Notes: a model not told the origin generated them from the letters alone. Positions 2,538 to 25,404 are shown, counted from the first letter of the stretch. The stretch is 27,470 nucleotides of DNA from Pseudomonadota bacterium (GCA_031416315.1 JANOTL010000088.1:1-27470); one strand, 5' to 3'. Numbers and translations are program-made.

Positions 2538-3050
2538 TCAGAGATCCAGGCTCAAAATGCCGACCGCGTCGCCGGAGAATGCGCGCATCACCTGCAGTCT
2601 TTTGGGGAAATTCACGTCGTTTTCATATTTCCGCGCCAGAAACGCCTCGTTGGCGTCGACGTCGAACTCGAGCTCGGCGTACTGCAGCATGCAGGTCAAA
2701 GTCGCGCCCGCCTTGATGCACTGGCCCGTCGTCGCGCTGTCCGCCTCGGTGACGGCGAAGAACTGGCCGTCGACCGCTTTCCCGCCTTTGAGCTCGATGA
2801 TGACGTCGCGCTCGCCCACGATGTCGTGGGGGAGGCAGTAGCGGATCACCGTCTCGGCCTCGCCGAAGACGGCGGTGCTGCCCTCCATCGTGAAGCGCGC
2901 GAACTCGTGCAGCTCACGCTTCACCGGCACCGAGTAATAAGCCTCGACCGGGCTGCGCGGCGTGGGCGACCACGGCGTGTATGCGAGCGCGGCTTGCGCC
3001 ACCAGAGTCGAACCAACGAGTAGCGCCTTCGGAATCACGGAACGAATCAT
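2538..3050 (-). CDS. Secreted hypothetical protein
   Basis: 170 aa. Sec signal ending ALA. ATGA overlap with the stop of the upstream regulator. Confidence 0.75.
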   Translation of the reverse strand: MIRSVIPKALLVGSTLVAQAALAYTPWSPTPRSPVEAYYSVPVKRELHEFARFTMEGSTAVFGEAETVIRYCLPHDIVGERDVIIELKGGKAVDGQFFAVTEADSATTGQCIKAGATLTCMLQYAELEFDVDANEAFLARKYENDVNFPKRLQVMRAFSGDAVGILSLDL

Positions 3051-4822
3051 GCTAGCCCCCTCATGCTATAGCGAGTCGCTCGCCCCTTGCCGTGGCGAAC
3101 GAGAACCCCCAGGTTGGTGAGATGCGCCAAGTCCCGGCGCGCCGAGACCTCGGATACCGAGAACTTCTGACTGATCGTGCGCGCGTCGCAGAAGCTCTCG
3201 TCTTTGAGATGCTCGACGATGCCGAGCTGGCGGTAGTTGAGCCGCTCGCTCTGCGGCTCCTCCGCTTTGGCCGTCGCCACGACGTGCAAGGTGCCACCGA
3301 GGAAGCCTGCGCTGAGGCCCGAGCGCAGCGCATAGCCAGCTTCGGTCACCTCGATCCAACCAGAGAAGGGGCCGAGCAGCTGCCTGAGGCGAGAAACCGC
3401 CGTGTAGATTAGTTGATCGTGTTTGAGCGGATTGTACTTGTAGCCCCAGATCTCGCGGATGAGCTCTTCCTTCGTCCCGTGGCCCGCGGCGAGGCTCTTT
3501 AGCAAAGTGCGGAACACCTGCGAGACGCCGCTCGGGACGAGATGCAACTCGCCGCTGTCGTAGGCGAGCAAGGCGCCGGGCAGGAGGTCGACGAGCAAGC
3601 CGGCCGTTCCCGGTGCGATCGCGAGCTTACTCATCAGGAGCTGCAGATAGCCGCTCTCGACGATGCGCCGCACCGCCGACTCGGACCGCGAGACGGAGAG
3701 GTCGACGAGGTCGCCGAGCGGATCGTCGCCCATCAGCGCCTGGCCGTTGTAACCGCGGAAGACGTCGCGACTCAGCATGCGCTGGCTCACGGCGCGGCCG
3801 GTAAAGCGCGTGAGCTCGGCGAGCTCCTTCTGCGTCCGCTCGCGCTCGGCGTCGAGCGAAGGGCAGGGCACGCGCTGAAGCAGGACCAGCTCGAGACCGC
3901 GCACCTCGGTCGCCACCGTCTTGTCGACGAATGGATCGAGCGCTTTGGCCGCGTTGCGGACGAGGTTCAGGGCTTGCAGATGCTCCCCTTCGAGCCGCAT
4001 CAAAGCCGCGTAACGCATGTTGAGAATGATGCCGTAGCGGCGATTCTGCGAGCCGTAGACGAGGCGGCAGGCTTCGTCGAGCGCGGCTTTCGCGCGAGAC
4101 TTGCGGCCGCGCAGGAGATGCTGGCGGCCAAGCTCGAGGAGGAGCCGCGACTTCGAGTAGTTGTCTTCCGACGTGAGCTCCGCGGCGACCGCCTCCAGGT
4201 GCGCGACGTCTCGCTCGGGACCCAGCCCGTGCGTCGCACTGTGGATCGCCAGGGAAACTTGGATCGCTTGGCGCAGGCCGCCGTCACCCAAGAGCTCAGC
4301 GTAACCGAGCGCGCGCCGAAAGCTCTCGCCCGCCGCTTGGATCTGACCCGGACCGACCTGGCTGTGCGCCATCAGATCCGACGCCAGCGCCTTGCCGTAG
4401 AGGAAGTTCGCCTCCAGCGCCGCGTTCAACGCGAGCGAGGCGTAACGCAGAGAGTCCTGGTATCGGCAGCCGACGAGGCGGTAGAAGCCCGCGCCCTGCC
4501 ACACGTAAAAGCGGACTTTAGCGCAGGGATGGCGCACGCCTTCGCGCAAGTTTTGCGCGAGGTACCGGCGGCCCCGCGCATAGTGGGAATGCCGACAGAG
4601 GTTGATGCCGAGGAAAAAGCGCGCGACGAAGCCGGTGACGGCGTCGATCTCGCCTTGAAAGAGGCGGTACGTCGACTCCGCCTCGTCCAAGCGGCCGCGA
4701 AAGGTCAGGGCGCCGATAACGAAGCCGGCCGCCTCCGGCGGGATCACGCCGCCGGGCGAATCCACCGTCTCTGCCAAGATGCGGCCGTAATTGCCGCGAT
4801 AAAAGTGGGCTTCGATCGTCAT
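3047..4822 (-). CDS. Transcriptional regulator with TPR-like helical region, OmpR-type winged helix and C-terminal DeoR-type HTH
   Basis: Helical repeat-like N-terminal half. TKEELIREIWG...YTAVSRLRQLL...GYAL is trans_reg_C-like. RQLGIVEHL...ISQKFSVSEVSARRDLAHL...RHGKGRATRY is DeoR-HTH-like. Confidence 0.85.
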   Translation of the reverse strand: MTIEAHFYRGNYGRILAETVDSPGGVIPPEAAGFVIGALTFRGRLDEAESTYRLFQGEIDAVTGFVARFFLGINLCRHSHYARGRRYLAQNLREGVRHPCAKVRFYVWQGAGFYRLVGCRYQDSLRYASLALNAALEANFLYGKALASDLMAHSQVGPGQIQAAGESFRRALGYAELLGDGGLRQAIQVSLAIHSATHGLGPERDVAHLEAVAAELTSEDNYSKSRLLLELGRQHLLRGRKSRAKAALDEACRLVYGSQNRRYGIILNMRYAALMRLEGEHLQALNLVRNAAKALDPFVDKTVATEVRGLELVLLQRVPCPSLDAERERTQKELAELTRFTGRAVSQRMLSRDVFRGYNGQALMGDDPLGDLVDLSVSRSESAVRRIVESGYLQLLMSKLAIAPGTAGLLVDLLPGALLAYDSGELHLVPSGVSQVFRTLLKSLAAGHGTKEELIREIWGYKYNPLKHDQLIYTAVSRLRQLLGPFSGWIEVTEAGYALRSGLSAGFLGGTLHVVATAKAEEPQSERLNYRQLGIVEHLKDESFCDARTISQKFSVSEVSARRDLAHLTNLGVLVRHGKGRATRYSMRGLA

Positions 4823-4950: not shown

Positions 4951-5532
4951 ATGCAAATCGTGACTAGAGTCTTCCCCTTTCTCGCCGCGCTCGCCGCGGT
5001 CGCCCCGCCAGCTCTCGCCGATTCCGAAGTCTTTGTGAGCGTTTGCGCGCGTCAGGCGCCTTTCGAGGCCTTCCTGACGTCGACGCTCGCCAAGCCATGC
5101 GATCAGATCACGTCAGAAGACCTTGCCGCCGTGAAGCGCGTTGCGGTCCCCGGCCGCGAGCTCGCGACCGTCACCGCGGACGACGTCGCCAACCTGCCGG
5201 CCCTGGAAATCCTCAACATCACGCGGAATCCGCTCAACGAGGGCCTGCCCGAGGGGCTCCTCGCGGCGCTCCCCGCGCTGAAAACCCTGGTCATGTTCGG
5301 CACCGAGCTGACCTCGCTCCCCGAGGACTTCCTCGAGGCCAACCCGCACATCGAGAACCTGCACCTCTTCGACAACCCCTTCGTCACCATTCCCGACGCC
5401 GTCCTCGAGCGCTTGGAATACGCGGCAGAGATCAAGGTGATCGATCTGAGCGAGGTGCTGGAGGCACCGGTCAAGGACCGGCTGCGCGCCCGCTTCCCGC
5501 TCGGCGGACCGGTCGAGCTGACGTTTTACTGA
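4951..5532 (+). CDS. Secreted leucine-rich-repeat protein
   Basis: GGAGG upstream of ATG 4951. Signal peptide ending ALA. LRR units LPALEILNITRNPL, LPALKTLVMFGTELTSLP and IENLHLFDNPFVTIP. N-terminal Cys pair (cap-like). Confidence 0.85.
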   Translation: MQIVTRVFPFLAALAAVAPPALADSEVFVSVCARQAPFEAFLTSTLAKPCDQITSEDLAAVKRVAVPGRELATVTADDVANLPALEILNITRNPLNEGLPEGLLAALPALKTLVMFGTELTSLPEDFLEANPHIENLHLFDNPFVTIPDAVLERLEYAAEIKVIDLSEVLEAPVKDRLRARFPLGGPVELTFY

Positions 5533-5542
5533 GGCAACGACC

Positions 5543-6628
5543 ATGGAACCGCTCGTGATGAAATTCGGCGGCACCTCCGTCGGCTCGCTGGAGCGCATCC
5601 GGGCGGTCGCGGAGCGCGCCTTGCAGGCGCAAGCCGAAGGCGTCTTTCCCGTTCTCGTGGTCAGCGCCATGAGCGGCGAGACCGACCGGCTCCTCGGCCT
5701 CGCCCGCTCCCTCGGCGGGGCTCCCGACCCCGCAGAGGTCGACGTTCTTGCCGCCACCGGCGAGCAGGCGGCTGCCGCGCTCGTGGCGCTCGCCATTCAA
5801 CGTCTGGGCGGGAAAGCTCGCTCCTTTCTCGGCGGCCAGCTCGCCCTGCGTACCGATGGACCCCACGGCGACGCCCGCGTGAAAGCCTTGGACCCGAGAC
5901 CCTTGCGCCGCGCGATCGGCAGGGGCGAGATCCCGGTGATCGCAGGCTTCCAGGGTGTGAGCGCCAAGGGCCGCGTCACCACCCTAGGGCGGGGAGGCTC
6001 CGATACCACCGCCGTCGCAGTCGCCGCGGCGCTCGGCGCGCGCGTCTGCGAAATCTACACCGACGTCGACGGCGTCTACAGCGGCGACCCCTCGCAAGTC
6101 CCAGAGGCGCGGCGCCTGACCGCGGTCGGCTACGACGCAATGGAGATCCTCGCGAAGCGCGGCGCGAAAGTGCTGCATGCCCGCAGCGTCACCCTCGCCC
6201 GCCGGCACGGCATCGAGCTCGAGGTCCTTTCCAGCTTCGCTTCGACCGTCAAGCGCGGCACGCGCGTCGGACCCGCCCGCATCGCCGACGGCAATCCCGG
6301 GCTCGCGGTCGCCTGCGACAAGCAGTTCGCGCATCTCCTCGTCGATGGCGTGATGGTCGAGCTGCGGCAGAGCGAGGTCGAAAGTTTTCGCCGGGCGGTC
6401 GCCTGCAAGAGCGCCTTCGCGCAACCCGAGTTGGCGCAGGTCTCCCTGGTCGGCGACGCCGCCGACTCCGTCCTCGCGGCCGAAGTGATGGCGCATTTGG
6501 CGCGCGAGAAGCTGCCGGTGCGCCGCATCACCGCAGAATCCGGCGCCATCACGTGCTGGGTGGATGCGCACGCGGCGCTCGCCGTCATGCGCGCGCTCCA
6601 CGACCGATTCGTGCTCCCGCACTCTTGA
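5543..6628 (+). CDS. lysC: Aspartate kinase with a shortened ACT regulatory region
   Basis: Motifs KFGGTSVG, VVSAMSGETDRL, AGFQG, TLGRGGSDTTAV, IYTDVDGVY and GAKVLH. Length 361 aa. Confidence 0.95.
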   Translation: MEPLVMKFGGTSVGSLERIRAVAERALQAQAEGVFPVLVVSAMSGETDRLLGLARSLGGAPDPAEVDVLAATGEQAAAALVALAIQRLGGKARSFLGGQLALRTDGPHGDARVKALDPRPLRRAIGRGEIPVIAGFQGVSAKGRVTTLGRGGSDTTAVAVAAALGARVCEIYTDVDGVYSGDPSQVPEARRLTAVGYDAMEILAKRGAKVLHARSVTLARRHGIELEVLSSFASTVKRGTRVGPARIADGNPGLAVACDKQFAHLLVDGVMVELRQSEVESFRRAVACKSAFAQPELAQVSLVGDAADSVLAAEVMAHLAREKLPVRRITAESGAITCWVDAHAALAVMRALHDRFVLPHS

Positions 6629-6650
6629 TCACAAACTGAAGGATCCTCCC

Positions 6651-7838
6651 ATGAAATCGCAAGCACCCGTCACGTTGCGCAGCTTCGCGCCGACGCCTTC
6701 GCCCGAAGCCACGAAGAAGCAAGGCGGCGCCGAGCTCTGGTTCGATGCCAGTCTCCTCGGCGAAGACGCCGCGAGCCTTTTGCCGCGCCTCGGCCGCTCC
6801 GGCTATACCGGCATCCTCCTCAAGGCCAATGATCTTGCGACCCTCGTGCCGCAGGTCGGCCCTCAGCTCCTGCCGATCGTCGCGGTCGAAGGCGAAGCCG
6901 AGCTCCTTCTCGTCCCCCAGCACGGCGTCGTCGCCAGCGCGGACGAGAGGATCCTGAGCCAAGCGCGCGGCGCCGGCTTTCCCACCTGCCTGCGCGCGTA
7001 TGTCGACGACGGCGACAGTCTCCACGACGCGATCGACCGCGGTCAAAAACACGATTACCTGATCCTGCGCTTCAAGGATCCGACCAATATCCCGCTCGAG
7101 CTGGTGATCGCGACCCTGCAGCCGACCAACACCGTGTTGATCAAAGAAATCTCGACCTCCGAAGACGTCGACGACGCCGTCGTCACGCTCGGCGTCATGG
7201 AGGTCGGCGCCGAAGGCGTCATGTTCTCGCCGAAAAACCACGCGGTCCTCGACGACTTCCTGGGGCGGCTCGCGGCTCGCGGCGAGGCCCACATCGCCTT
7301 GAAGCCGGCAACCATCGTCCGCAGCGTTCCCGTCGGCATGGGCTATCGCAGCTGCATCGACCTCGCCACCTTGTTCACCCCGCGCGAGGGCATGCTGGTC
7401 GGCTCGACCTCGCAGGGCGGCATCCTCTGCTGTCCCGAGGTCTTCTTCCTCCCGTACATGGAGCTGCGCCCATTTCGCGTCAACGCGGGCGCCGTGCATA
7501 GCTACGTCTACAATTTCGCCGATCGCACCGACTACATGAGCGAGCTGCGAGCCGGAGCCAGCGTCATGATCGTCGATCTCGATGGCAAGGCGCGCCGCGC
7601 CGCCGTCGGCCGCATCAAGACGGAGGTGCGCCCCTTGCGGCTGATCGAGGCGCGCTTCGACACCGGCGAGATGATCAACGTCCTGATGCAGGACGACTGG
7701 CACGTGCGCATCTTCTCGGCGAAGGGCGAGCCGCTCAACGTCACCGAGCTCAAAGCCGGCGACGAGGTGATGGCCTACCCGGCGCGCCCTGGCCGCCATG
7801 TCGGCATTAAGGTCGAAGAGACCATCCTCGAGTCCTGA
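6651..7838 (+). CDS. 3-dehydroquinate synthase II family; GriH-like 3-amino-4-hydroxybenzoate synthase
   Basis: Motifs F-x-DPTNIPLELVIA, GMGYRSCID, EGMLVGS, LPYMELRPFRVNAGAVHSY, VGRIKTEVRPL, MQDDWHVR and GRHVGIKVEETILE. Adjacent to a GriI-like aldolase. ATG at 6651 follows GAAGGA. Confidence 0.88.
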   Translation: MKSQAPVTLRSFAPTPSPEATKKQGGAELWFDASLLGEDAASLLPRLGRSGYTGILLKANDLATLVPQVGPQLLPIVAVEGEAELLLVPQHGVVASADERILSQARGAGFPTCLRAYVDDGDSLHDAIDRGQKHDYLILRFKDPTNIPLELVIATLQPTNTVLIKEISTSEDVDDAVVTLGVMEVGAEGVMFSPKNHAVLDDFLGRLAARGEAHIALKPATIVRSVPVGMGYRSCIDLATLFTPREGMLVGSTSQGGILCCPEVFFLPYMELRPFRVNAGAVHSYVYNFADRTDYMSELRAGASVMIVDLDGKARRAAVGRIKTEVRPLRLIEARFDTGEMINVLMQDDWHVRIFSAKGEPLNVTELKAGDEVMAYPARPGRHVGIKVEETILES

Positions 7839-7856
7839 GCCGTCCCCCTCGCCCCC

Positions 7857-8696
7857 ATGAGGTTTTCGATGAGTGCCCGCACGATCCGTTTATCCCGCTT
7901 CACCCGGCGCGGCGCCACCGCCGGGGTCCTCGTCCCGATCGACCACGGCCTTACGCTCGGGCCGCTCGGCGGCATCCGGAACTTAGCCGAGATCGCGAGC
8001 TGGATCGGCCACCCGGCGATCGCCGGCGTGATCGCTCACAAGGGCATCGTCGAGCGTCTCGGCGACCGGGGCCTGATCCAAGGCCAAGGCGTCATGGTGC
8101 ATCTGAACGGCATGAGCTCCTTCGCCCAGGATCCCGACACCAAGACCGCGGTCACGAGCGTGCGCGCGGCGCTGCGCCTCGGGGCCGACGCGGTCTCCCT
8201 CCAGGTCAATTTCGACGGGCAGAACGACGCGCACAACCTGGCGCTCCTCGGCCGGATCGTCGACGAGGCGCACCGCGAGGGCCTGCCCGTCCTGACCATG
8301 CTCTACGACAAGGTGCAGCACGAGGGCGACAAGACGCGGATCCTGCGCCAAAGGCATTTGATCCGCCTCGCGGTCGAGCTCGGCACGGATGCGCTGAAGC
8401 TCGCGCCGCCTCCGGCCGCGCGCCTCGCCTTCGAGCTGCCGGAGATCGTCGCCGACCACGCGCTGGATACCGCCATCTACTTCGCCGGCGGCGCCACCGT
8501 CTCTGACCAGGAGCTTCTGACGCTGGCACGCGAAGCCGTGCGCGCCGGCGCCAAAGGCCTTTGCGTCGGTCGCAACGTCTTCGGCCGCGCCAGCCCGGGC
8601 AAGATCCTGGCGGAGCTCGACCGGGTCATGAACGCCGCGCCTTTGGCGCTGGCGGAAGAAGCTTCGAACGGAGGGACCGCGCTTGGCGTGCATTGA
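7857..8696 (+). CDS. Class I (DhnA-type) aldolase; GriI-like aspartate-semialdehyde/DHAP aldolase
   Basis: Motifs VPIDHGLTLGP, HKG, ALRLGADAVS, GLPVLTMLY, AVELGTDALK (Schiff-base Lys), FAGG and GLCVGRNVF. The start could be 7857 or 7869. Confidence 0.88.
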   Translation: MRFSMSARTIRLSRFTRRGATAGVLVPIDHGLTLGPLGGIRNLAEIASWIGHPAIAGVIAHKGIVERLGDRGLIQGQGVMVHLNGMSSFAQDPDTKTAVTSVRAALRLGADAVSLQVNFDGQNDAHNLALLGRIVDEAHREGLPVLTMLYDKVQHEGDKTRILRQRHLIRLAVELGTDALKLAPPPAARLAFELPEIVADHALDTAIYFAGGATVSDQELLTLAREAVRAGAKGLCVGRNVFGRASPGKILAELDRVMNAAPLALAEEASNGGTALGVH

Positions 8697-9435
8697 CGCA
8701 CACGCGCATTTGCGTGCAGACCCGGAAGGCGCGGCGAAGTTCGTCGCGCTGATGGACCGCCTCGACGTCGAAGCCGCGTTCGTCGTCTTCGGAGGCCTCG
8801 TGCCGCCGGCGGTGCTCGCACGCCAGATCTCCTACGGCGGCGGCACCGACGCGTCCGCCGACAACGCCGCGCTGCTCCGGCACGCGGCGGCGCACCCGGG
8901 GCGCCTCATCCCCTATTACTTTGCCAATCCTTTGCAGGGCAGTGCCGAATACGAGCGCGACGGACACGCGTACGCCGGGCTCAAGCTCGGTCCTGCGGTG
9001 CACGGCGTGCCGCTCTCAGATCATCGTACGGGGGGGTTGATCGAAAGGGCGGCACGTTTCGGGCACGCCGTTTACCTGCATTGTCTCGCGAGGCCGGGGT
9101 TCGATTTGCCGGCGTTCGTGACCCTGGCGAAAACGCACGGCAGCGTGCGCTTCGTCCTCGGTCACGGCGGCATCGGTCAGGCCGATTTCGACGCGTTGGA
9201 GCGGATCGCGCCGCTCGACAACGTGGCGCTGGAGACCTCGGGCGCCTTCACCGGTTTGATTGCCGCGGCCTTCCGCATGCTCGGCAAGGACCGCGTCCTG
9301 TTCGGCAGCGAGTATCCGCTCCAGGATCCGCGCGCCGAGCTGGCGAAGCTCGACTGCCTCGCCCTCACCGCCGAGGAGCGCGCCGCTTACCTCCGTCTAA
9401 ACAGCTTGAAGTGGATGAGTCCCCATGCTCCCTGA
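8683..9435 (+). CDS. Amidohydrolase-family metalloenzyme; NatAM-like benzoxazole-forming cyclase
   Basis: Motifs IDAHAH (HxH), GLKLGPAVHG, YLHC, VLGHGG, LETSG and VLFGSEYP. TTG start after GGAGGG. Overlaps both neighbouring genes. Confidence 0.85.
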   Translation: MACIDAHAHLRADPEGAAKFVALMDRLDVEAAFVVFGGLVPPAVLARQISYGGGTDASADNAALLRHAAAHPGRLIPYYFANPLQGSAEYERDGHAYAGLKLGPAVHGVPLSDHRTGGLIERAARFGHAVYLHCLARPGFDLPAFVTLAKTHGSVRFVLGHGGIGQADFDALERIAPLDNVALETSGAFTGLIAAAFRMLGKDRVLFGSEYPLQDPRAELAKLDCLALTAEERAAYLRLNSLKWMSPHAP

Positions 9436-10666
9436 CCGCCTCCTCGACGTCCTCGCGGCGGCGCGCAAGGCGCCGTTCTACGAGCCCCGGCTGCCGCGGC
9501 TGCGTCGTCTCGACGACGATGCGTGGCAGGCGGTGCCGCTCACCCGCAAGACCGACCTGCGCGCCGCCTATCCTTTCGGGATGCTCGCGGTCGAGCGCAC
9601 GCGGCTCGCGACCTATCACGAATCGAGCGGCACAAGCGGCGAGCCGACGGCGTCTTACTTCACCGACGCGGACTGGGAAGACGTGACCTCGCGCTTTTTG
9701 CGTAACGCCGTCGGCCTCGGTCCGGACGACACCGTCCTCGTGAAGACGCCCTACTCGATGGTGACGACCGCGCATCAGATGCACCGCGCCGCGCGCTCGC
9801 GCGGAGCCCTGGTGGTGCCGGCGGACAATCGCTCGTCCAACATGAGCTATGCCCGGGTCGTCCGCCTGTTGAAGGATCTCCCGATCACGGTCTCTTGGTG
9901 CTTGCCGACCGAGGTGATGCTTTGGGAGGCCGCCGCGCGCCTGGCCGGGCTGGATCCGCGCCGTGACTTCCCGGCTTTGCGCGCCTTTCTCGTCGCCGGC
10001 GAGTGTTTGAGCCCCGCCCGCCAGCGTCGCCTTTCCGACCTCTGGGGCAATAAGCGCGTGCTCCAGGACTACGGCTCGACCGAGACCGGGAGCCTCGCGG
10101 GCGAGTGCACGGCCGGAAGGCTGCATCTATGGTCCGACCGTGTCTATGCCGAGGTCCTCGACGCGAAGACCGGCAGGAGCGCGCCTTCCGGGACGGGACA
10201 GCTCGTCGTCACGACCCTGCAGCGCGAGGCCATGCCGCTCGTGCGCTACCTGCTCGAGGACCAGGTCCGAATCGAGACGGAGCCCTGCGCCTGCGGCTCA
10301 CCGCATCCGACGATCGAGGTCTTCGGCCGCGCCGCCGATCTCGCCACGGTACAGGGCGCCCACTTCTACCCGATCCAGCTCGAAGACTGCGTGTTTTCCT
10401 TGCCCATGGAGCACGGCGTGACCTTCTGGCGCGCTCGTCACGGCGGCGAGGCGCTGGCCATCGAGATCGACGCGGCGCCCGGGCACGCCGGCAAGGCCGC
10501 CGAAGAGCTGACGCGCCTCATCCTGCTTCGGCTCGGCGTCAAGGCGAGCGTGCGCGCGGTCACGGGGCTCGTGCCCCATGCAGCTTTGGCGAAAGTCTCG
10601 AGCTTCGGCAAGCCCCGCTACCTCTTCCGCTCCCACGAAGATTGGCGCGACGGCCTCGGTTACTGA
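9425..10666 (+). CDS. Phenylacetate-CoA-ligase-family adenylating enzyme; NatL2-like aryl-acid coupling ligase
   Basis: Motifs PLTRKTDLR, YHESSGTSGEP (P-loop), AGE, QDYGSTETG, ECTAGRLH and CACG (Zn-site-like), LVVTTL and MPLVRY. Confidence 0.9.
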   Translation: MLPDRLLDVLAAARKAPFYEPRLPRLRRLDDDAWQAVPLTRKTDLRAAYPFGMLAVERTRLATYHESSGTSGEPTASYFTDADWEDVTSRFLRNAVGLGPDDTVLVKTPYSMVTTAHQMHRAARSRGALVVPADNRSSNMSYARVVRLLKDLPITVSWCLPTEVMLWEAAARLAGLDPRRDFPALRAFLVAGECLSPARQRRLSDLWGNKRVLQDYGSTETGSLAGECTAGRLHLWSDRVYAEVLDAKTGRSAPSGTGQLVVTTLQREAMPLVRYLLEDQVRIETEPCACGSPHPTIEVFGRAADLATVQGAHFYPIQLEDCVFSLPMEHGVTFWRARHGGEALAIEIDAAPGHAGKAAEELTRLILLRLGVKASVRAVTGLVPHAALAKVSSFGKPRYLFRSHEDWRDGLGY

Positions 10667-10706
10667 GCTCACGACCTCCCTCTTCACTTCTTTCGACGAG
10701 GATCCC

Positions 10707-12344
10707 ATGTCTCGAGCACCCACGCACCTCGACGCCAAGCTCCGGGCGGCGCTCGCGGCCGATCCGGAACTCGGCGCCGGCGACTTCCTTTGGCATGTGG
10801 TGCGCGCCAACCCGGCGCGCGAGCTGCCGATCCTGACCTTCGAGAGGCCGGTCCGCACGTTTTACGGGCGCGAGTTCGCGACCCTGAGCCTTGCGGAGCT
10901 CTTCGAAGTCTCGACGCGCTACGCGGCCTGGTACGCCGGCGCCGGCGTGAAGGCGAAGGACGTCGTGTCAATCTACCTCGACGACGGCGGCGCCTACCTG
11001 ATCCACTTCCTGGCGCTGACGAGCCTCGGCGCGATCCCGGCACTGATCAACGGCAACATGCCGATTGCCGTCGCGGCTGGTCACGTCAAGCGGATCGGCT
11101 CCTTCGGCCTCTATACCGAACCGAAGCGCGAGAGGGCGTTGGCGGATCTGCCGGAGACGCCGCTTTCGAGCCTGGCCTTTCTCGTCACCGACGCGACCGC
11201 GACGACGATCGGACGAGGTGAGCCGGCGCGCTTGCCGCAGCGCTACCCGTACAAGCACCATGCGGACGACCCGATCATGATCGCGCACTCATCGGGGACC
11301 ACGGGCATCCCGAAGCCGGTGCTCCTGCAGCACCAGCGCTTTTTCCACGGCATCCGCTTCCGCCTGAGCCAACCGCCGACGCCCGGTAACACGCAGATTC
11401 TGTCGACCTTGCCGCATTCACACAACTGCGCCATCGCCTACATCATGCTGGCGCTGTTGAACGGGACGCCGGTCTACCTTTTGTCGACGCACACCGGACA
11501 CGCGCTCGTCCGAGCCATCGACCGCGTGAAGCCGACGATGGTCGTCTCGTTCCCGCAGACCTTCGTCGAGCTGACCGAGGCCGAGCCGGAAAAATTCGAC
11601 CTCGCGAGCGTGATGCTTTGGATGAACGGCGGCGACGCCGCGCACGAGACGCACATCCGACGCCTGGTCGCCTTTGGCCACCGCCTCCTGCCCGACGGCC
11701 GGAAGATCGCGGGCTCGATCTTCGTCGACGGCATGGGCTCGTCGGAGATGGGCTTCTCCCTCTTCCGTCACGTCCACACGCCGGAGACGAACGATTACGG
11801 CCGCTGCGTCGGCAAGCCGCACGACTGGGTCGACGCGCAGGTCTTCGGCGAAGGCGGCGAGCGCCTCGGCGCCGGCACGGTCGGCCGCCTCGGCGTGCGC
11901 GGCCCCTCGGTGACTTCGGGCTATTGGAACGACTCGCTCCTCACCTACCGCACGCAGCTCGACGGCTACTGGCTCACCGGCGATCTTGTTTACAAAGACG
12001 AGGAGAACCGCTTCTACCACGTCGACCGCGTCCCCGACCTGGTGACGACGGCCGAAGGCCCACTTTACAGCCTCGAAACCGAGGAGCTCCTGATGCGCCA
12101 CGTGCCGGAGATCGCCGACTGCAGCGTCTTCGACGCCGGAGGCAAGGCGCACGCGCTGGTGCGGCTGCGCCCGGAAGGCGCGCGCTTCACGGAGGCGGGC
12201 TTACGCGCGCGCTTCAACACCGTCCTGTCCGAGCTGAAGCGGCCGCTCCTTGCGCAGGTCGACGTCGTCGGCACGAGCAAGATCCCGCTCGGCGCCACCG
12301 GCAAAGTCCTAAAACGCGAGCTGCGGGATGCCTACCATGTTTGA
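10707..12344 (+). CDS. AMP-dependent synthetase/acyl-CoA ligase (ANL superfamily)
   Basis: Motifs HSSGTTGIPK, DGMGSSEMG, GYW, WLTGDL and GATGKVLKRELR. ATG at 10707 follows GAGGA. Confidence 0.92.
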   Translation: MSRAPTHLDAKLRAALAADPELGAGDFLWHVVRANPARELPILTFERPVRTFYGREFATLSLAELFEVSTRYAAWYAGAGVKAKDVVSIYLDDGGAYLIHFLALTSLGAIPALINGNMPIAVAAGHVKRIGSFGLYTEPKRERALADLPETPLSSLAFLVTDATATTIGRGEPARLPQRYPYKHHADDPIMIAHSSGTTGIPKPVLLQHQRFFHGIRFRLSQPPTPGNTQILSTLPHSHNCAIAYIMLALLNGTPVYLLSTHTGHALVRAIDRVKPTMVVSFPQTFVELTEAEPEKFDLASVMLWMNGGDAAHETHIRRLVAFGHRLLPDGRKIAGSIFVDGMGSSEMGFSLFRHVHTPETNDYGRCVGKPHDWVDAQVFGEGGERLGAGTVGRLGVRGPSVTSGYWNDSLLTYRTQLDGYWLTGDLVYKDEENRFYHVDRVPDLVTTAEGPLYSLETEELLMRHVPEIADCSVFDAGGKAHALVRLRPEGARFTEAGLRARFNTVLSELKRPLLAQVDVVGTSKIPLGATGKVLKRELRDAYHV

Positions 12345-12380
12345 GCGCACCGCCCACCCCATCAACCCGGAGGAAATCTC

Positions 12381-13109
12381 GTGACCGTGATCCCCTTGGA
12401 CCCACGCTGGAGCCCGCTGATCGAGCCGTCGTGGATCGCCGAGCTCGACGACGCCCCGCTCCTCAGGCGCGCCGCGAGCGGGCGCGCCAGCCGCGCCGAA
12501 CTCCATGCCTTCATCGCGCAGCAGTTCCACTATTCGCGGCACTTCACCCGCTATTTGTGCGCGCTCATGGGCAACTTGAAGGACGAGGCGGACCGCGCCG
12601 AGCTCGCCGAGAACTTGTTCGAGGAGCTCGGGCTCGGCGCCGGCGGCGGCGTCGCCCACTCGCTCCTCTATCGACGGATGATGATCGCGATGCGCATCGA
12701 CGCCAACGCGGTCCCGGTGCATCCGGCGACGCGTGCCCTGGTCGAGGCGATGCTCACGGCCTGCGCCGATCCCGACCCGGCGGTCGGGCTGGGTGCGCTC
12801 TGCCTTGGGGCTGAAGCGATCGTGCCGCACGTCTACAGTCAGATCCTCGCGGGCCTGCGCGCCGTCGGCGAGCCGGAGGCCCACCTCGAGTTCTTCGCGC
12901 TCCACATCGAGGCCGACGACGAGCACGCGATCACGCTCGGCAAGATCATCGAGCGCGAGGTCCTTGCCGATCCGACGAAGCGCGTCGCGCTGCGCAAGAG
13001 CGCGCAACGCCTCATCGCGGCGCGAGTCGCTTTCTTCCGCGCCGTTCGCCCGGCGCATCCCTTTCCGCTGCATGTGGAGGCCGAAAACGATGAGCGCGTA
13101 CACGTCTAA
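12381..13109 (+). CDS. Heme-oxygenase-like diiron oxidase/oxygenase (TenA/PqqC/CADD-like fold)
   Basis: Ligand pattern ENLFEELG...H, GAEAIVP and FFALHIEADDEHA (E,H,E,H,D,H). GTG start after GGAGG. Confidence 0.85.
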   Translation: MTVIPLDPRWSPLIEPSWIAELDDAPLLRRAASGRASRAELHAFIAQQFHYSRHFTRYLCALMGNLKDEADRAELAENLFEELGLGAGGGVAHSLLYRRMMIAMRIDANAVPVHPATRALVEAMLTACADPDPAVGLGALCLGAEAIVPHVYSQILAGLRAVGEPEAHLEFFALHIEADDEHAITLGKIIEREVLADPTKRVALRKSAQRLIAARVAFFRAVRPAHPFPLHVEAENDERVHV

Positions 13110-13545
13110 AGATTTCGCCCGCGTCCCGGCGGCGCTCACGGCCGCGCTTCCCGACACCCTGATCCACCGAAACGTCGCCGGCCAGGCCGCCGACGCGGGC
13201 TTTAGCGCCGAGCGTAAGCATCCCGTTCATCTAGTTGACCTGCCGGCTAAGACTTTGAGCGTCACGCTCGGCGGCATCGTGCCCGCGGGACGCACCGGCC
13301 GCCACCGGCACAATTACGAGACGATTCTCTACGTCACCAAGGGCAAAGGCCGCACGGTGATCGAGGATCATGTCGTCGACTGGGAGGCCGGTGACGCCGT
13401 CTACATTCCCGTTTGGGCTTGGCACCATCACGAGAACCGCAGCGCGACCGACGGCTGCGAGTACTTGGCCTGCGAGAACGCGCCGCTCTTGCAGAATCTG
13501 GGCGGCATCGCCCTGCGCGAAGAGGAAATGCATGAATCCCTTTGA
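13090..13545 (+). CDS. Cupin-domain metalloprotein
   Basis: Motif 1 GRHRHNYETILYVTKGKG and motif 2 GDAVYIPVWAWHHHEN give a 3His/1Glu metal site. ATG at 13090 follows GGAGG. Confidence 0.9.
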   Translation: MSAYTSKDFARVPAALTAALPDTLIHRNVAGQAADAGFSAERKHPVHLVDLPAKTLSVTLGGIVPAGRTGRHRHNYETILYVTKGKGRTVIEDHVVDWEAGDAVYIPVWAWHHHENRSATDGCEYLACENAPLLQNLGGIALREEEMHESL

Positions 13546-14146
13546 AGGCACGCCCCTGCGCGGCCGGCATCCCGACTGGCAGGAGCTTTACGCGCGGGTC
13601 CCGGCGGAGCGGCTGCCGTGGCATAGCGCGGCGCTCGACCCTGACCTCGAGGGCGAGCTCGAGCGCCGCGCCTTGCGATCCGGACGGTTCCTCGACGTCG
13701 GCACCGGCGCCGGGCATCAGGCGGTCGCCTTGGCGCGGCGCGGCTTCACCGTCACCGGCACCGATCTGTCGCCGGCGGCGATCACGCAGGCCGAAGCACT
13801 CGAAGGCAGCGTGCAGTTCGTCGTCGACGACGTGCGCGATACGGCCCTGCGCGAGATTTTCGACTTTGCCTTCGACCGCGGTCTCCTCCATGTGCTCGAG
13901 GAATCGGAGCGGCAGCGTTTCGCCGAGACGATGGCCGCGCTCCTCCGGCCGGGCGGCCTCTTGTTTCTGAAGTGCTTCAGCGACGAAGAGCGCGAGGCGC
14001 CGGTCGGTCCGACGCGGTTCGCCCGCCGCGATCTCACCTTCGTCTTCGAGCCCGCCTTCGCCGTCCTGAGCTGCGAGAGGACGATCTTCCACGGTCCCCT
14101 TCCCCACAAACCGCGCGCCTGGTTCGCGGTCCTGGAGCGACGCTAG
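13532..14146 (+). CDS. Class I SAM-dependent methyltransferase
   Basis: Motifs WQELY...LPW, FLDVGTGAG, GTDLSPAAI, FDFAFDRGLLH and LLRPGG. ATG at 13532 overlaps the cupin 3' end. Confidence 0.92.
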   Translation: MNPFEGTPLRGRHPDWQELYARVPAERLPWHSAALDPDLEGELERRALRSGRFLDVGTGAGHQAVALARRGFTVTGTDLSPAAITQAEALEGSVQFVVDDVRDTALREIFDFAFDRGLLHVLEESERQRFAETMAALLRPGGLLFLKCFSDEEREAPVGPTRFARRDLTFVFEPAFAVLSCERTIFHGPLPHKPRAWFAVLERR

Positions 14147-14569
14147 GTGAAAACGCATGCATTCACGGCGAAGAGCGTCTGGCTCGGGGGGCTCGCCGGC
14201 GACGGCCTGGTCGAGGCCGGCGAGCTGAAGACGGGCTACTCCGTCCCGAGCTCGCTGGGTGGGCCGGGAAAAGCCTCGAATCCCGAGGAAATGCTGCTCG
14301 CGGCGGCGACGGCGTGCTTCTCGATCACCCTCGCAGCGGCGCTCGAGCGCCGCGGCCTTTCGGCCGAGGCGGTCGAGGTGACGAGCCAGGCGACGTTCGG
14401 ATTCGACGGGCGGACCCTTCACCTGACCGCGGTGGAGCACCGACTGCGCTTGCGGGCCGTCGGGGCGGAGCTCGATCGGGAGAAGCTAGAGGAGGCGCTC
14501 AAGGCGGCCGAGCTCGGGTGTATGGTGAGCCGGGCCTTGAACGTGGCGGTTACGGTCCGCTACGATTGA
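14147..14569 (+). CDS. OsmC/Ohr-family protein
   Basis: GGPGKASNPEEMLLAAATACF and AELGCMVSRAL carry the two conserved Cys. The start directly abuts the methyltransferase stop. Confidence 0.92.
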   Translation: MKTHAFTAKSVWLGGLAGDGLVEAGELKTGYSVPSSLGGPGKASNPEEMLLAAATACFSITLAAALERRGLSAEAVEVTSQATFGFDGRTLHLTAVEHRLRLRAVGAELDREKLEEALKAAELGCMVSRALNVAVTVRYD

Positions 14570-14570
14570 A

Positions 14571-14598
14571 AGCGCCCCGGATGCGGATCCGGGGCGCT
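14571..14598. terminator. Probable bidirectional terminator closing the biosynthetic operon
   Basis: AGCGCCCCGGAT-GCGG-ATCCGGGGCGCT, a perfect 12-bp stem between convergent genes. Confidence 0.75.
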
Positions 14599-14648: not shown

Positions 14649-17525
14649 TTACAGGCGCTCGAACACGAGCGGCAGGAAGTGCGCGCCTTCGCCACGCTCG
14701 CCGGCGCTTCGGTCCTCGGGAGCCGGCCGCGGAGACTCGGACGGCGCGCTGGTTGACGTCGCACCTTCGGCGAGGCCCATGCCGCTCGGTTGCGTGGATG
14801 GCGCGGGCGCCGGAGCCGCCATCGGCGGACGCGGTGCCGACGAATCTTGCCCACCAGACGCCAGGGCCTCGTTGACTTTGCCCACTTCGACGCCGGTGCA
14901 GCTGCTGGCGTAGTTCATGGCAAAGTCGCCAGCGAAACTATTTTGCGTTGCATCGCGGAAACGGCCGCGGAGCGAGCTGGTCATCGTGTCGACGCAGCTT
15001 TCCTGGCCACCATTGGGCTCCTGCTCGCTTGCGTACAAGCGCGTTTGGTAGGAGTTCACGTCCACCCGCGTCAGCTCGAAGGCGCCGTTGAAGCGGGGCT
15101 TCAGCGTGAACTCGCCGCCGATCTGGCCGATGACCGTGCTCTTGAATGAGCCGCTGGCGTCGTAGCAAGCGCTGCGCGGCTCCGGCGATCCGCTGCATGC
15201 GAGAGACTGCGAGCAGCCGTTAGCGCCGTCGCACTCCCAGTGCATGTAGTAGCTGGGGAGACACTGGTTCGCCAACAGGTCGGAGACCGAGGCCGCGACC
15301 GAGGGGCCCGCGAGGCAGGACAAGCGCTCGAGCGCCGAAGCCCACTGCTTATTCATGGCGAGGATCGCCTCGACCTGCACATCGAAGCTGGCCGCGGCGA
15401 ATTCCGTCGCGCAACCTTGGAACTGGTCTGCCGTCTCGTACCAGTTACCCTGGTTCGCGGCGAAGTAGAGGGGGCAGAGCACAGGGGCTTGCTCGAGACC
15501 GACCCAAAGCTGGTTGCCCGCTTGCAACTCATCTTTCACGAGCTTTTGGCTGCCTTCTTGCGCCTTCATTCCGAGGCTATAGAAGACGTTCTGCGCTTGG
15601 TAGCAAAGCTCCGGGGGCGCTTCCCACATCACGGGCTCGGACGCCTCGACCGACATCGTCGCGGGGGTCGGCTCGTTCAGCGCGAAGCCGTCCTTGGGCA
15701 CCTCCGGCACTGGCGACGCGCCGCCGTCGGAGGGCTCGCTTTGGCCGTAGCCCTGCCCCATGTTCGCGAACAACTTGGCGCATTGGCCGAAGCCGCCTTT
15801 GGCGGCGAAGTCGGTCGGCGCTTTGAAGCGCGCGCAGATGTCTTGACCCTTGGACCATGACGCGCTCTGGACAAGCTCGCCGATCAGCTCACGGGTGCGT
15901 TGCGCTTCGGCAGCGAGACGGCCGTTGAAAGGACCGCCCACGGTGACGTCGCACTCGGGGCGACGGTAGACCGCGAGAGCCTCGGCTTCCGTGGCGCCTT
16001 GCGCAGTGTCTTGGATCAGGTACTGATAGCTCGACGGGATCGACTGCTCGCCGTCGGGGTTCGACTGGGTCGAATCCACTGGTTTGTAGTGGTACGTCTG
16101 GGTCACGCGGCAGAGAAGATTCAAATTCTTGCCGGCGGCGTCGACGAAAACTTTCATGTTGCCGAGGCCGGTCGAGTGGTCGAGCGCGGTCGCGGAATTG
16201 GAGCACCAGGGAAGGGTCCAGTCGCGGTTACGCTCTTTTTCGGCCATCGCCTCGCCGTCACCGTTCCACTCGAGCCAGGTTTGGCAGACTTGGTCGCGGG
16301 AGCCCGCCGCCGTTGCGTCGGCAAGCGCATCGAACTCTTCGAGCGCGTAGTAGCCCGGATACGAGTAGGTGACGAGCTTGCTGAGCCAATTGCCGGCTTC
16401 GTCCTGGTACCACTCGTCATACGAGCCGGTGACGTCCGCCGGCGCGGAGACCACCTTGCAGTCCTGGGGCGTGTACGGGTTGTACGCGCAGCTTTGCTTC
16501 TGCCAAGTCGTGTCGCGCTCGACGAGCGCGTCGATTTCGGCTTTGACGTCGGCCGACAGCACGCCATAAACGCCGCCGAGGCCGGCATTGAAATCGTCGA
16601 TGTTCTTGAAGCTGATGGGCACGCCCTTCATCGAGAAGACGGGCTCGCCGCCCGCGGCCAGACCGCAAGCCTCGGCGATCTTTTTCGACTCGAAGAGGCG
16701 GACTTTGTCGAGGGCCTGGGCGAAGTACACGTTGCCGACCGGAACGCCGTAGACGTAGGCCGCGGACTCGCCTTCTTGGCCCTTGATGCCGGCCTTCCAT
16801 TCGCCGGTGAAGGGCTTGGCGAAGACGGTCGGCTCGAGCTTCTTCTTTTCTTTGATCGCCGCGAGCTTCGACGGCTTGAGCGAGGTGCTCTTTTCGACGT
16901 CGATTTTGCCCGAGGCAAGCTTATTCTTCGGGTTGTAGACGACGTTCATCGAGATGACGCCGTCCGCGCCGAAGATGCTGGACTCCGGCTTCCCGTCGGC
17001 GCCGGGCACGGTCACTGCGACCTCGAACGCGTAAGTGCCGTCGGCGCCCCGCAGTTCGACGACGATGGCGAACTCGACTCCCGCAGGGACGTCGACCTTG
17101 TACGCGCCCGTGGTGTCGTCGATGGCGCCTTTGAATTTGACGCCGTCGGTCGTGGTGGCCACGATGACGCGCTCCGTGCCGCCGGCGTCGAGCCAGAGAC
17201 CGAGGCCTCCGCCGTCCCGGTCTTCCGCGACCTTGAACACGCCCGAGACGCTCACGACCTCTTCGAGGGGATCGACGACGGGATCGACGGCCGGCGGGAC
17301 TTCCGCGGTCGGGACCTCCTCAGCCGGCGGCACGACCTCGTCGGCAGCGGGGGCCGTCGCTTGGTCGGCCGGCGGCGCGACCGGAGCGGCGCCTTGCGGG
17401 AGCTGCTGGATGGCGTTCTTAATGGCTTCGCCGCCGCCGCCCGAAGACTTCGAGCAGCTCGTCGCCGTCATCGCGAGGGTCGCGAGCGACGCGAGGACGA
17501 AAGGAACTTTTGCCTTGATGATCAT
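14649..17525 (-). CDS. Large Cys-rich lipoprotein of unknown function (958 aa)
   Basis: Signal peptide with lipobox-like ATS-C followed by SKSSGGGG. Pro/Ala/Glu linkers. About 20 further Cys, with no CxxCH. Confidence 0.85.
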   Translation of the reverse strand: MIIKAKVPFVLASLATLAMTATSCSKSSGGGGEAIKNAIQQLPQGAAPVAPPADQATAPAADEVVPPAEEVPTAEVPPAVDPVVDPLEEVVSVSGVFKVAEDRDGGGLGLWLDAGGTERVIVATTTDGVKFKGAIDDTTGAYKVDVPAGVEFAIVVELRGADGTYAFEVAVTVPGADGKPESSIFGADGVISMNVVYNPKNKLASGKIDVEKSTSLKPSKLAAIKEKKKLEPTVFAKPFTGEWKAGIKGQEGESAAYVYGVPVGNVYFAQALDKVRLFESKKIAEACGLAAGGEPVFSMKGVPISFKNIDDFNAGLGGVYGVLSADVKAEIDALVERDTTWQKQSCAYNPYTPQDCKVVSAPADVTGSYDEWYQDEAGNWLSKLVTYSYPGYYALEEFDALADATAAGSRDQVCQTWLEWNGDGEAMAEKERNRDWTLPWCSNSATALDHSTGLGNMKVFVDAAGKNLNLLCRVTQTYHYKPVDSTQSNPDGEQSIPSSYQYLIQDTAQGATEAEALAVYRRPECDVTVGGPFNGRLAAEAQRTRELIGELVQSASWSKGQDICARFKAPTDFAAKGGFGQCAKLFANMGQGYGQSEPSDGGASPVPEVPKDGFALNEPTPATMSVEASEPVMWEAPPELCYQAQNVFYSLGMKAQEGSQKLVKDELQAGNQLWVGLEQAPVLCPLYFAANQGNWYETADQFQGCATEFAAASFDVQVEAILAMNKQWASALERLSCLAGPSVAASVSDLLANQCLPSYYMHWECDGANGCSQSLACSGSPEPRSACYDASGSFKSTVIGQIGGEFTLKPRFNGAFELTRVDVNSYQTRLYASEQEPNGGQESCVDTMTSSLRGRFRDATQNSFAGDFAMNYASSCTGVEVGKVNEALASGGQDSSAPRPPMAAPAPAPSTQPSGMGLAEGATSTSAPSESPRPAPEDRSAGERGEGAHFLPLVFERL

Positions 17526-24516: not shown

Positions 24517-24747
24517 TGGGATCGTCCTCCAGGCCACACGCGAATTACCTGGAGGGGTCCTCGGAGATTTTGGGGAAAGCTTGAAGGCGCGGTCGAAACC
24601 CGGTGGAATCAAGGGCCTTCCTGTGCGCCATTCGGCGGCCTTTGGCGGCAACCCGCCCGGCCTTGTCAAGATTTCAGGCGATCTCCCGAAATTCTGCGTG
24701 CAAGGACGCAAGCAAAATTCTTTTCGCGTCGCGCGAGGGAGACGAAC

Positions 24748-25404
24748 ATGAAGTTCATCGCATTGAAGATGGGACTGATCGCCGGGTTGGCGCTCTCCGT
24801 CCACGGTTGCTCCGGGGACCAGCAGCAGGAAGAGGCCATCGAGAACACCGAGGGCGAGAACGAGGCCGGCGGCAACCAGGCCGCCGAGGGCTCGGGCAGC
24901 GGCGAGGAAGAGAACGAAGAGGGCAACGCGCCGGCCGAAGGCGGAGAGGACGGTGAAGGCGGTGAAGCCGACGGCGAAGACGCCACCGGCGACGAGTCGG
25001 CCGAAGGGGGCGAGGCGCCTGCCACGGACGCCGCTACGGACGCGCCAGCGACCGAGGCTCCGGCCGCGGACGCCACGGCGGCAGCCGCTCCCACGGGGGC
25101 TCCGGCTGATGCCCCTGCTGCCGGCGGCGCAGCCCCGGCCGCGGCCGCTCCGGAAGGCGGCGGCGTCGATCCGAACCGCGTGGTGCGCTTCGTCGTCGCC
25201 GACGGCACGGCGATCAAGTCGGCGGCCAACGACACGGCCGGCGCGGCCGGTACCTTCTCGCAGGGCGACATCGTCATGGTCGTCATCGAAGGCGAGTGGG
25301 CGAAGCTCAACGACCAAGCCTTCGTGAAACTCTCCGACCTCTCCGAGAAAGCGGTGCCGCGCATGAAGGGCAAGACCGCCTCGTGGTCCGCCGCGGGCGG
25401 CTGA
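24748..25404 (+). CDS. Lipoprotein with a long acidic/Ala-rich disordered linker and a C-terminal SH3b-like domain
   Basis: ATG 24748 after GAGGGAG. Cys after a hydrophobic stretch (VHG-C). E/G/A-rich tract. C-terminal VRFV...AIKS...GTFSQGDIVMVVIEGEWAKL...FVKLSDLS is SH3b-like. Confidence 0.8.
   Translation: MKFIALKMGLIAGLALSVHGCSGDQQQEEAIENTEGENEAGGNQAAEGSGSGEEENEEGNAPAEGGEDGEGGEADGEDATGDESAEGGEAPATDAATDAPATEAPAADATAAAAPTGAPADAPAAGGAAPAAAAPEGGGVDPNRVVRFVVADGTAIKSAANDTAGAAGTFSQGDIVMVVIEGEWAKLNDQAFVKLSDLSEKAVPRMKGKTASWSAAGG

Follow-up and report, generated by a model that had tools for sequence, protein, structure and literature searches.

A predicted benzoxazole operon containing a type Ib diazotase-family ligase in a probable member of the Oligoflexia

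The DNA analysed here (the window) is a stretch of 27,470 nucleotides from a Pseudomonadota bacterium (GCA_031416315.1, JANOTL010000088.1). It is the whole of contig C88 of genome G000, which comprises 6.36 Mb in 226 contigs and is 93.3% complete. Eleven genes on the plus strand, at positions 4951 to 14569, form an operon that most likely joins a benzoxazole module, similar to that of the putative noc cluster of Nocardiopsis, to a type Ib diazotase with accessory genes of a non-actinomycete kind. All of the chemistry was read from sequence; on that footing the chances are about even that a benzoxazole is assembled and subsequently diazotised. Ten of the genes are listed below.

5543-6628, plus strand: aspartate kinase, an extra copy (TIGR00657, 285 bits; cut-off 209)
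6651-7838, plus strand: GriH/BagC/ClxB-type synthase of 3-amino-4-hydroxybenzoate (3,4-AHBA), DHQS-II family (PF01959, 300 bits)
7869-8696 (start at 7857 possible), plus strand: GriI/BagB/ClxE-type class I aldolase (PF01791, 97 bits)
8683-9435, plus strand: amidohydrolase (Amidohydro_2), 250 aa, putatively benzoxazole-closing, of a noc-like group (PF04909, 85 bits)
9425-10666, plus strand: NatL2/AjiA1/BagE-type aryl acid ligase, 413 aa (AjiA1, 396 bits; NatL2, 381 bits)
10707-12344, plus strand: ANL enzyme of the type Ib diazotase family, 545 aa (AvaA6 model, 471 bits; H239, F282, K533)
12381-13109, plus strand: haem-oxygenase-like diiron enzyme (Haem_oxygenas_2), candidate N-oxygenase (PF14518, 96 bits)
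13090-13545, plus strand: metal-binding cupin (Cupin_2), 151 aa, partner of the diiron enzyme (PF07883, 53 bits)
13532-14146, plus strand: S-adenosylmethionine-dependent methyltransferase, TPMT/TehB-like (PF05724, 60 bits; PF13649, 60 bits)
14147-14569, plus strand: OsmC-family two-cysteine protein, candidate reductant of a diazo product (PF02566, 65 bits)

These genes and a leucine-rich-repeat (LRR) gene at the head of the operon were free of internal stops, were separated by -20 to +40 nt and had a GC content at third codon positions of 0.79 to 0.88; every one of the 11 products passed its Pfam cut-off. In this respect the analysis agreed with a preliminary description of the window, which had listed 11 co-oriented and tightly coupled genes. 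The arrangement is not a matter of chance, since nearly the same set and order recur at locus L168 of genome G058, which belongs to the same taxonomic order as G000 and to another family, and at metagenome locus L151. Locus L168 contained the LRR, GriH, GriI, amidohydrolase, ligase, second ANL, diiron and cupin genes, a 113-aa open reading frame (ORF), the methyltransferase and OsmC genes and a regulator gene. Locus L151 contained all 11 genes and the regulator gene, together with di-haem peroxidase and glyoxalase-like genes.

The evidence for diazotisation came from the 545-aa ANL enzyme. Its best NCBIfam model was AvaA6 (471 bits, compared to 157 bits for the runner-up), and four PDB sequences were matched beyond 1e-30, namely 8ZTZ (379 bits), 9XB8 (337 bits), 9BQ0 (328 bits), which is Tri17 (PMC12207350), and 8TF7. 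The 8ZTZ sequence was taken to be CmaA6 because H224, F267 and K533 fall into register once the numbering is shifted by 16 residues. In CmaA6 these residues form the nitrite site and are essential by mutagenesis, as are the corresponding residues of Mco01_40450 (PMC12207350); they aligned with H239, F282 and K533 of the window protein. In a 112-row alignment, from which duplicates, the split G058 gene and matches of less than 300 residues were left out, the His/Phe/Lys triad was present in 104 of the 106 family rows, the other two of which end before the lysine, and in none of the six outgroup ANL enzymes. A tree built by a quick method placed the protein within the 106-row clade (SH-aLRT 100), which also contained ava-type enzymes and those of M. 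siamensis and Marinactinospora thermotolerans, and within a 13-row sub-clade (SH-aLRT 95) of myxobacterial and metagenomic proteins. It was 44% identical over 547 aa to the M. thermotolerans enzyme which, to judge from the species and the neighbours of its gene at locus L006, would be the group 5 diazotase of that organism, an enzyme active in vitro on aminobenzoates (PMC13674236). Family membership and active site together make it likely that the 545-aa enzyme is a diazotase, which would activate nitrite with ATP and, in the manner of CmaA6 and AvaA6, turn a free aryl amine into a diazo group.

Several observations weigh against this assignment. The AvaA6 score lay below the equivalog cut-off of 975, the 13-row sub-clade contained no characterised enzyme, and two tested groups of type Ib enzymes were almost inactive on anilines (PMC13674236). 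The gene was frameshifted in G058. The triad was also kept in a 35-row actinomycete clade whose genes lie beside type II polyketide synthase (PKS) genes, and CreE was missing in three of the four genomes of this clade that were tested; presence of the triad alone is no proof of diazotase activity. This 35-row clade (L014, L017, L021-L023, L025-L027 and approximately 27 more actinomycete loci) also had HPPD-like, PhyH and pyruvate dehydrogenase-like neighbours; it is an uncharacterised cluster family that could reveal other roles of diazotase-like ligases.

The preliminary description had treated the second ANL enzyme as a coupling ligase in a pathway to a closoxazole-like scaffold, and this was not sustained. 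Such a pathway would yield a closoxazole-like trimer, with the second ANL enzyme replacing ClxC/PfxA to add a third aryl unit and the diiron enzyme, cupin and methyltransferase oxidising and methylating the trimer. The clx and pfx clusters do each combine two ligases, one amidohydrolase and two AHBA genes, no nitrite source was found in G000, and triad-bearing relatives occur in genomes without CreE. However, ClxA (440 aa) and ClxC (442 aa) are both PaaK-like (PMC9400959 supplement), with PfxA and PfxC as their homologues (PMC12118335), and the window encodes a single PaaK-like ligase beside its 545-aa diazotase-family enzyme. Furthermore, the phenylalanine by which CmaA6 closes its acid pocket was kept in the window protein, whereas the six outgroup ligases have Ala, Gly or Val, and at seven loci (L003, L005, L008, L020, L169, L175 and L176) the diazotase-like gene accompanied GriH and GriI genes without a PaaK-like ligase or amidohydrolase gene. 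We consider the trimer improbable.

Supply of the aryl building block was the firmest part of the pathway. Aspartokinase would feed aspartate semialdehyde to the aldolase and the DHQS-II protein, which would form 3,4-AHBA; a homologous gene pair has been shown to make this compound in Clostridium (PMC9400959). By homology to that chemistry the operon very probably makes 3,4-AHBA, and the GriH/GriI assignment of the preliminary description was upheld by the Pfam matches. Matches to more specific models fell under their cut-offs, with 236 bits to BagC_FevH (cut-off 750) for the DHQS-II protein and 170 bits to the ADH synthase model and 113 bits to BagB_FevI for the aldolase. Two further full-size aspartate kinase-like genes were present in G000 besides that of the operon.

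The 413-aa ligase scored 381 to 396 bits against NatL2 and AjiA1 and 110 to 179 bits against PaaK-type enzymes, consistent with its earlier description as a PaaK-like ligase of the NatL2 kind. With reference to the NatL2 active-site residues in the Horch supplement (PMC9400959), S88 (Ser68 here), G237, T239 and K418 were kept, as were the Cys/His zinc motifs, and P214 was replaced by Cys. The adjacent amidohydrolase belonged to a family of 101 close homologues. Among its 80 metagenome loci, which are mostly short, the 23 of at least 9 kb were used for counts; GriH was present in 22 of these, a PaaK-like ligase in 22 and aspartokinase in 15. This neighbourhood ties the enzyme to AHBA chemistry. 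A first contig scan of genomes with the single amidohydrolase as query found no relative. The protein was 47% identical to A0A250JBU6 of Cystobacter fuscus, which is listed with the noc candidates in cluster 2 of a ClxD/NatAM network, in which ClxD falls in cluster 3 and the nataxazole strain in cluster 1 (PMC9400959). The earlier view of the amidohydrolase as NatAM-like was not supported: a single-sequence PDB search found no match, a profile search found 17 distant matches (best 55 bits), none of them named NatAM, and the myxobacterial relatives lie in cluster 2, apart from ClxD.

It is probable, from these assignments, that the two enzymes form a benzoxazole dimer. The ligase would adenylate 3,4-AHBA and couple two units, and the amidohydrolase would close the oxazole ring, to give 2-(3-amino-4-hydroxyphenyl)benzoxazole-5-carboxylate. 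The alternative is that no benzoxazole forms, the ligase acting like BagE/FevW to make an ester or amide of 3,4-AHBA and the amidohydrolase hydrolysing or decarboxylating, so that the product is a small phenol derivative with a diazo or nitroso group. The likeness to BagE/FevW favours this pathway, since BagE_FevW was the top NCBIfam model of the ligase (425 bits, under its cut-off of 800), and so does the loss of NatL2 P214. The amidohydrolase had no characterised close relative, the pathway for network cluster 2 and with it the noc assignment is a proposal only (PMC9400959), and the weak PDB profile matches included decarboxylases. Conversely, the group to which the amidohydrolase belongs was assembled from ClxD/NatAM homologues encoded beside activating enzymes, and one of its members is the noc candidate of a relative of the nocarbenzoxazole producer (PMC9400959); the size of the window enzyme fits that of ClxD (250 compared to 255 aa), the two having been compared through the network listing and length. 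We regard a pathway without a benzoxazole as unlikely.

Several known systems share parts with the operon. With clx of Clostridium cavendishii and pfx of Pyxidicoccus fallax it shared GriH/GriI homologues, a PaaK-like ligase, an amidohydrolase of approximately 250 aa and a predicted dimer (PMC9400959, PMC12118335). It is not a member of that group, because the feature of two PaaK-like ligases fails: the second ANL enzyme is the 545-aa diazotase-family protein. In addition, the PaaK-like ligase is much closer to NatL2 than is ClxA (27%, Table S6, PMC9400959), the amidohydrolases fall in different network clusters, and the window operon has six extra genes. The putative noc cluster, which is known as a proposal only, has an aspartokinase, GriI, GriH, an amidohydrolase of 253 aa and one PaaK-like ligase in common with the window; its proposed route removes the aryl amine via a tyrosinase and an FAD oxidoreductase and reduces the carboxyl group (PMC9400959). 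In place of the tyrosinase and FAD oxidoreductase, the window has the diazotase-like ligase, OsmC, diiron enzyme and cupin. The nat, AjiA and bom systems (NatL2, AjiA1) and the BagE/FevW enzymes of bag and fev shared the ligase sequence and most of its active-site residues. The nat, bom and cbx pathways differed from the window, where the predicted precursor is 3,4-AHBA and not 3-hydroxyanthranilate, there were no 3-hydroxyanthranilate genes among the 11 and there was no NatAM-type cyclase. The mich cluster was set aside as a relative, being of the 3-hydroxyanthranilate type. The ava/cma deamination systems (AvaA6/CmaA6 with AvaA7/CmaA7; PMC10777205, PMC12207350) and the type Ib diazotases (PMC13674236) had a 3,4-AHBA origin and the His/Phe/Lys nitrite site in common with the window. 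Unlike ava and cma, the window operon had no ketosynthase or carrier gene of a type II PKS, had OsmC and diiron-cupin neighbours, a non-actinomycete host and a benzoxazole as predicted substrate, and its genome had no AvaA7 homologue and no CreE/CreD.

It is the diazotase-like gene, and not the benzoxazole module, with which the diiron, cupin and OsmC genes travel. The 15 non-actinomycete loci (the window, L003, L004, L005, L008, L011, L019 with L190, L020, L084, L088, L151, L168, L169, L175 and L176) had OsmC in eight cases, the diiron and cupin genes in five, the diiron gene alone in one and CreE in none, and the 73 actinomycete loci had no OsmC, diiron or cupin gene; several loci are short and related loci are not independent. 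The preliminary description had the operon further oxidise a closoxazole. Since these three genes accompany the diazotase-like gene, that claim was not borne out, and nitrogen-nitrogen (N-N) chemistry was probably overlooked. The methyltransferase was retained in L151 and L168 only, among the loci examined.

The cysteines C57 and C125 of OsmC were invariant in nine of nine aligned sequences, and a fusion of a diazotase-family ligase with OsmC was found in Sinorhizobium medicae (WP_102030049.1). At loci without OsmC a different reductase was often adjacent: L004 and L011 have nitroreductases, L005 has a flavodoxin-like protein and L176 an AvaA7-like protein. Gene fusion and neighbourhood thus point, at somewhat less than even odds, to OsmC acting on the diazo product. 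In the place of AvaA7 it would reduce the diazo compound to a deaminated, nocarbenzoxazole-like or a hydrazino product, and the methyltransferase would cap a hydroxyl group or a nitrogen.

The diiron enzyme has six iron ligands, three histidines and three carboxylates (E82, H93, E145, H175, D179 and H182), which were invariant in nine of nine aligned sequences. Its nearest structures were CADD, BesC, HrmI and the 3BJD/8W1Q protein; it scored 53 bits against TIGR04305, which has a cut-off of 200. The profile gave 82 bits with CADD. The cupin site (H72, H74, E77 and H112) was invariant in ten of ten sequences. SznF, GrbD and HamA/HamB similarly pair or fuse a haem-oxygenase-like diiron domain with a cupin in N-N chemistry (PMC11705231); the window pair differs in that, as proposed, it would supply an ATP-dependent ligase encoded separately. 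A CADD-type supply of p-aminobenzoate, as a closoxazole B-like starter, was rejected, since in an alignment with CT610 the donor residues Tyr27 and Lys152 were replaced by Leu28 and Ile155; in CADD these are, we take it, the donor residues of a self-sacrificing p-aminobenzoate synthase.

Fusions also connected these proteins with each other and with the diazotase family. P0377 fuses a diiron domain and a cupin that were 41% and 54% identical to those of the window, and 23 further cupin matches were found among the 150 diiron relatives listed. P0379, a single metagenome sequence, joins a diiron domain to a diazotase-family domain, and has lost neither the triad nor any of the six iron ligands; its nearest relative was a Pseudoduganella enzyme of another sub-clade. 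In G136, a diiron-cupin pair closes a nonribosomal peptide synthetase (NRPS)/PKS cluster 27 kb from a ligase-OsmC pair. Other diiron-cupin arrangements were seen as well. The distant relative P0407 is a diiron-cupin-globin triple fusion, in which the globin could hint at the handling of nitric oxide (NO) or O2. In G004, a diiron, cupin, amidohydrolase and OsmC gene lie in a row after a 115-aa, weakly ligase-like ORF (L186:15838-16559 and L187:1-2130), in what looks like a reduced copy of the operon split across two contigs. In genome G130, of the same class as G000, a gene for a diiron-cupin fusion is accompanied by a ThiF-family gene and by major facilitator superfamily (MFS) transporters (L188:7827-11286). 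Two more diiron-cupin fusions were found in G134 (L193 and L194), and a search over 401 genomes around G134 gave a match in G134 alone. A plasmid search with the diiron protein returned four records, with cupin or diazotase-like neighbours in neither of the two inspected.

A diazotase requires nitrite, and none of the sources looked for in G000 was found. CreE was not found by tblastn or by PF13454, CreD gave a weak lyase match only, there was no AvaA7-like match at an E value of 1e-5, no NO synthase and no NarG match, and no full-length Nas/Nap-type gene (best match partial, 118 bits); G000 is incomplete, which weighs on the CreE and nitrate reductase negatives. CreE was also not found in any of nine other non-actinomycete carriers of the diazotase-like gene, in a search that detected the actinomycete positive control. 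Its absence from G000 must not be over-read, because CreE lay within 10 kb at 16 of the 73 actinomycete loci, was missing in three of five further actinomycete carriers, and because, of 134 ava-like clusters in actinomycetes, 72 have no genes for the aspartate-nitrosuccinate (ANS) pathway, exogenous nitrite being among the options of those authors (PMC10777205). Proximity to this CreE/CreD pathway was, moreover, the criterion by which the type Ib family was collected (PMC13674236).

The fusions and the missing ANS pathway suggest, tentatively, that the diiron-cupin pair supplies nitrite or NO. The diiron enzyme would oxidise an amine, and the cupin would release nitrite or NO for the diazotase. 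The alternative keeps the diazotised benzoxazole and differs in this step only: nitrite would have an environmental or general metabolic origin, leaving the diiron enzyme and cupin to tailor the aromatic product by N-oxygenation of the aryl amine, ring hydroxylation or ring cleavage. Nitrite from outside fits the ava-like clusters devoid of ANS genes. It also fits the cupin, whose nearest structures were gentisate 1,2-dioxygenases and whose close relatives adjoin DapA-like genes in unrelated operons, and Nibrella (G131), where the diazotase-like ligase and OsmC occur without a diiron or cupin match. The diiron-cupin pair was absent from 10 of the 15 non-actinomycete loci and was present without a whole diazotase-like gene in G100 and G004 (73% and 77% complete). 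A close relation of the diiron enzyme to SznF was rejected (14 bits, E = 0.2). Complementarity between the pair and nitrate reductase was not seen among 13 genomes, eight of which had full-length NasC-model matches that are possibly nitrate reductases, four of them with a diiron gene as well; at 420 to 536 bits the model cannot separate nitrate reductases from formate dehydrogenases. All of this counts against a nitrite-forming role. An outside source is harder to reconcile with the fusion of a diiron to a diazotase-family domain in P0379, with the accompaniment of ligase-OsmC by the pair on a different scaffold in G136, which suits supply of a small molecule better than tailoring, and with a genome that shows no nitrate reductase. 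We regard it as a possible explanation, but a doubtful one.

Read as a whole, the data allow a broader proposal, which is advanced with considerable reserve: that non-actinomycete type Ib diazotases use a kit of their own, in which the diiron enzyme and cupin provide nitrite or NO without the ANS pathway and OsmC reduces or removes the diazo group, coupled here to benzoxazole assembly to give a benzoxazole of diazo, hydrazino or deamino type that has yet to be described, in a host of predatory lineage. A deaminated, methylated nocarbenzoxazole-like acid, a stable o-diazophenol and a hydrazine are all plausible end products, the first because the noc proposal needs loss of the same aryl amine.

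The host is probably a member of the Oligoflexia. Three of the 119 MlaE homologues listed were named, as Deltaproteobacteria, Oligoflexales and Proteobacteria bacterium, at 60 to 62% identity. The phylum of G000 comprised 131 genomes, and the relatives shown belonged to the same order or the same class; this shape presumably fits Oligoflexia. Searches of the ESM Atlas were uninformative about both host and function. The Bdellovibrionota/Oligoflexia-like host of the preliminary description is accordingly probable, and the claim that the lineage was unexpected is weaker than stated, as there are cultured myxobacteria that have this amidohydrolase and ligase too. In Cystobacter fuscus, Archangium violaceum and Stigmatella ashevillena these two proteins are two accession numbers apart, as they are spaced in the window. 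The diazotase-like gene was present in 3 of the 131 genomes of the host phylum, and 20 of 119 ligase homologues appeared, by eye, to be paired by genome with an amidohydrolase homologue, which suggests that many more copies of the operon exist. Because presence is patchy and the nearest relatives are myxobacterial, transfer is also suggested.

Other clusters containing the diazotase-like ligase were encountered. NRPS/PKS clusters of Sinorhizobium, Nibrella, Novosphingobium and one alphaproteobacterial metagenome-assembled genome form a family of this kind, most of whose members also have OsmC and GriH/GriI (L175:9944-12073, L003, L004, L019/L190); L175 is the Sinorhizobium medicae plasmid NZ_CP149880.1, and six S. 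medicae plasmids were matched. Moorena bouillonii PNG5-198 has a compact cluster (L005:7589-13972) of GriI, GriH, diazotase-like ligase, O-methyltransferase and flavodoxin-like reductase genes with a cremeomycin-like logic; CreE was not found in the Moorena genome. A Klebsiella michiganensis plasmid (L176:5705-11638) carries GriH, GriI, an AvaA7-like reductase, an MFS transporter and the diazotase-like ligase amid insertion sequences. G009, a genome of the same taxonomic family as G000, has a different cluster (L169:1900-4790), in which the diazotase-like ligase is combined with GriH, GriI and an ORF that by eye resembles an FAD monooxygenase. It diverges from a regulator of the type found in the window.

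The remaining features of the locus are as follows.

3047-4822, minus strand: regulator-like protein, 591 aa, divergent from the operon, with a C-terminal DeoR-type helix-turn-helix (PF08220, 33 bits)
4951-5532, plus strand: LRR protein, 193 aa (PF13855, 30.8 bits)
14571-14598, no strand assigned: GC-rich hairpin of 12 bp between convergent genes (z = -2.84; as stable in 0 of 200 shuffles)

Of the two operon borders described previously, the divergent regulator was supported by its helix-turn-helix and the terminator hairpin was not, as no U-run adjoins it and a terminator scan made no call there; a terminator at this site is plausible. The regulator has three paralogues in G000 (on C94, C101 and C67; 32 to 39% identity), matched no NCBIfam model and belongs to a lineage-specific regulator family; its type also adjoins the operon or cluster in L151, L168 and L169. 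The LRR protein, whose N-terminus resembles a signal peptide by eye, is probably non-catalytic, and its gene also heads the operon in L151 (42%) and L168 (38%). Convergent on the operon, at 14649-17525 on the minus strand, is a 958-aa lipoprotein-like ORF with a signal ending in SCS; the product is acidic and Cys-rich and had no Pfam match. Further along, 23269-25373 contains two lipoprotein-like ORFs, one with a VWA domain on the minus strand and one, acidic and of low complexity, on the plus strand.

A literature search found no paper that joins benzoxazole closure with diazotisation; subscription literature was mostly outside its coverage, so that novelty is provisional. It found nothing on OsmC in diazo biosynthetic gene clusters, as judged by titles and the beginnings of abstracts, and, in the portions of the papers available, no module of haem-oxygenase-like diiron (HDO) enzyme, cupin, nitrite and diazo chemistry. 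If only the benzoxazole half of the reading is true, the operon adds an uncharacterised cluster to a kind that has been surveyed before. As read here, it combines benzoxazole closure with diazotisation, each of them a known module. Type Ib diazotases have been surveyed in actinomycetes only, with 211 candidates gathered by their closeness to CreE (PMC13674236), and the origin of nitrite in clusters without ANS genes is stated to be open (PMC10777205). The operon offers a compact candidate answer to the nitrite question, in the form of two small iron enzymes, and a candidate diazo reductase in OsmC, both backed by gene fusions. It is also a way into the uncharacterised amidohydrolases of cluster 2, and the cultured myxobacteria that have the same core make the system approachable.

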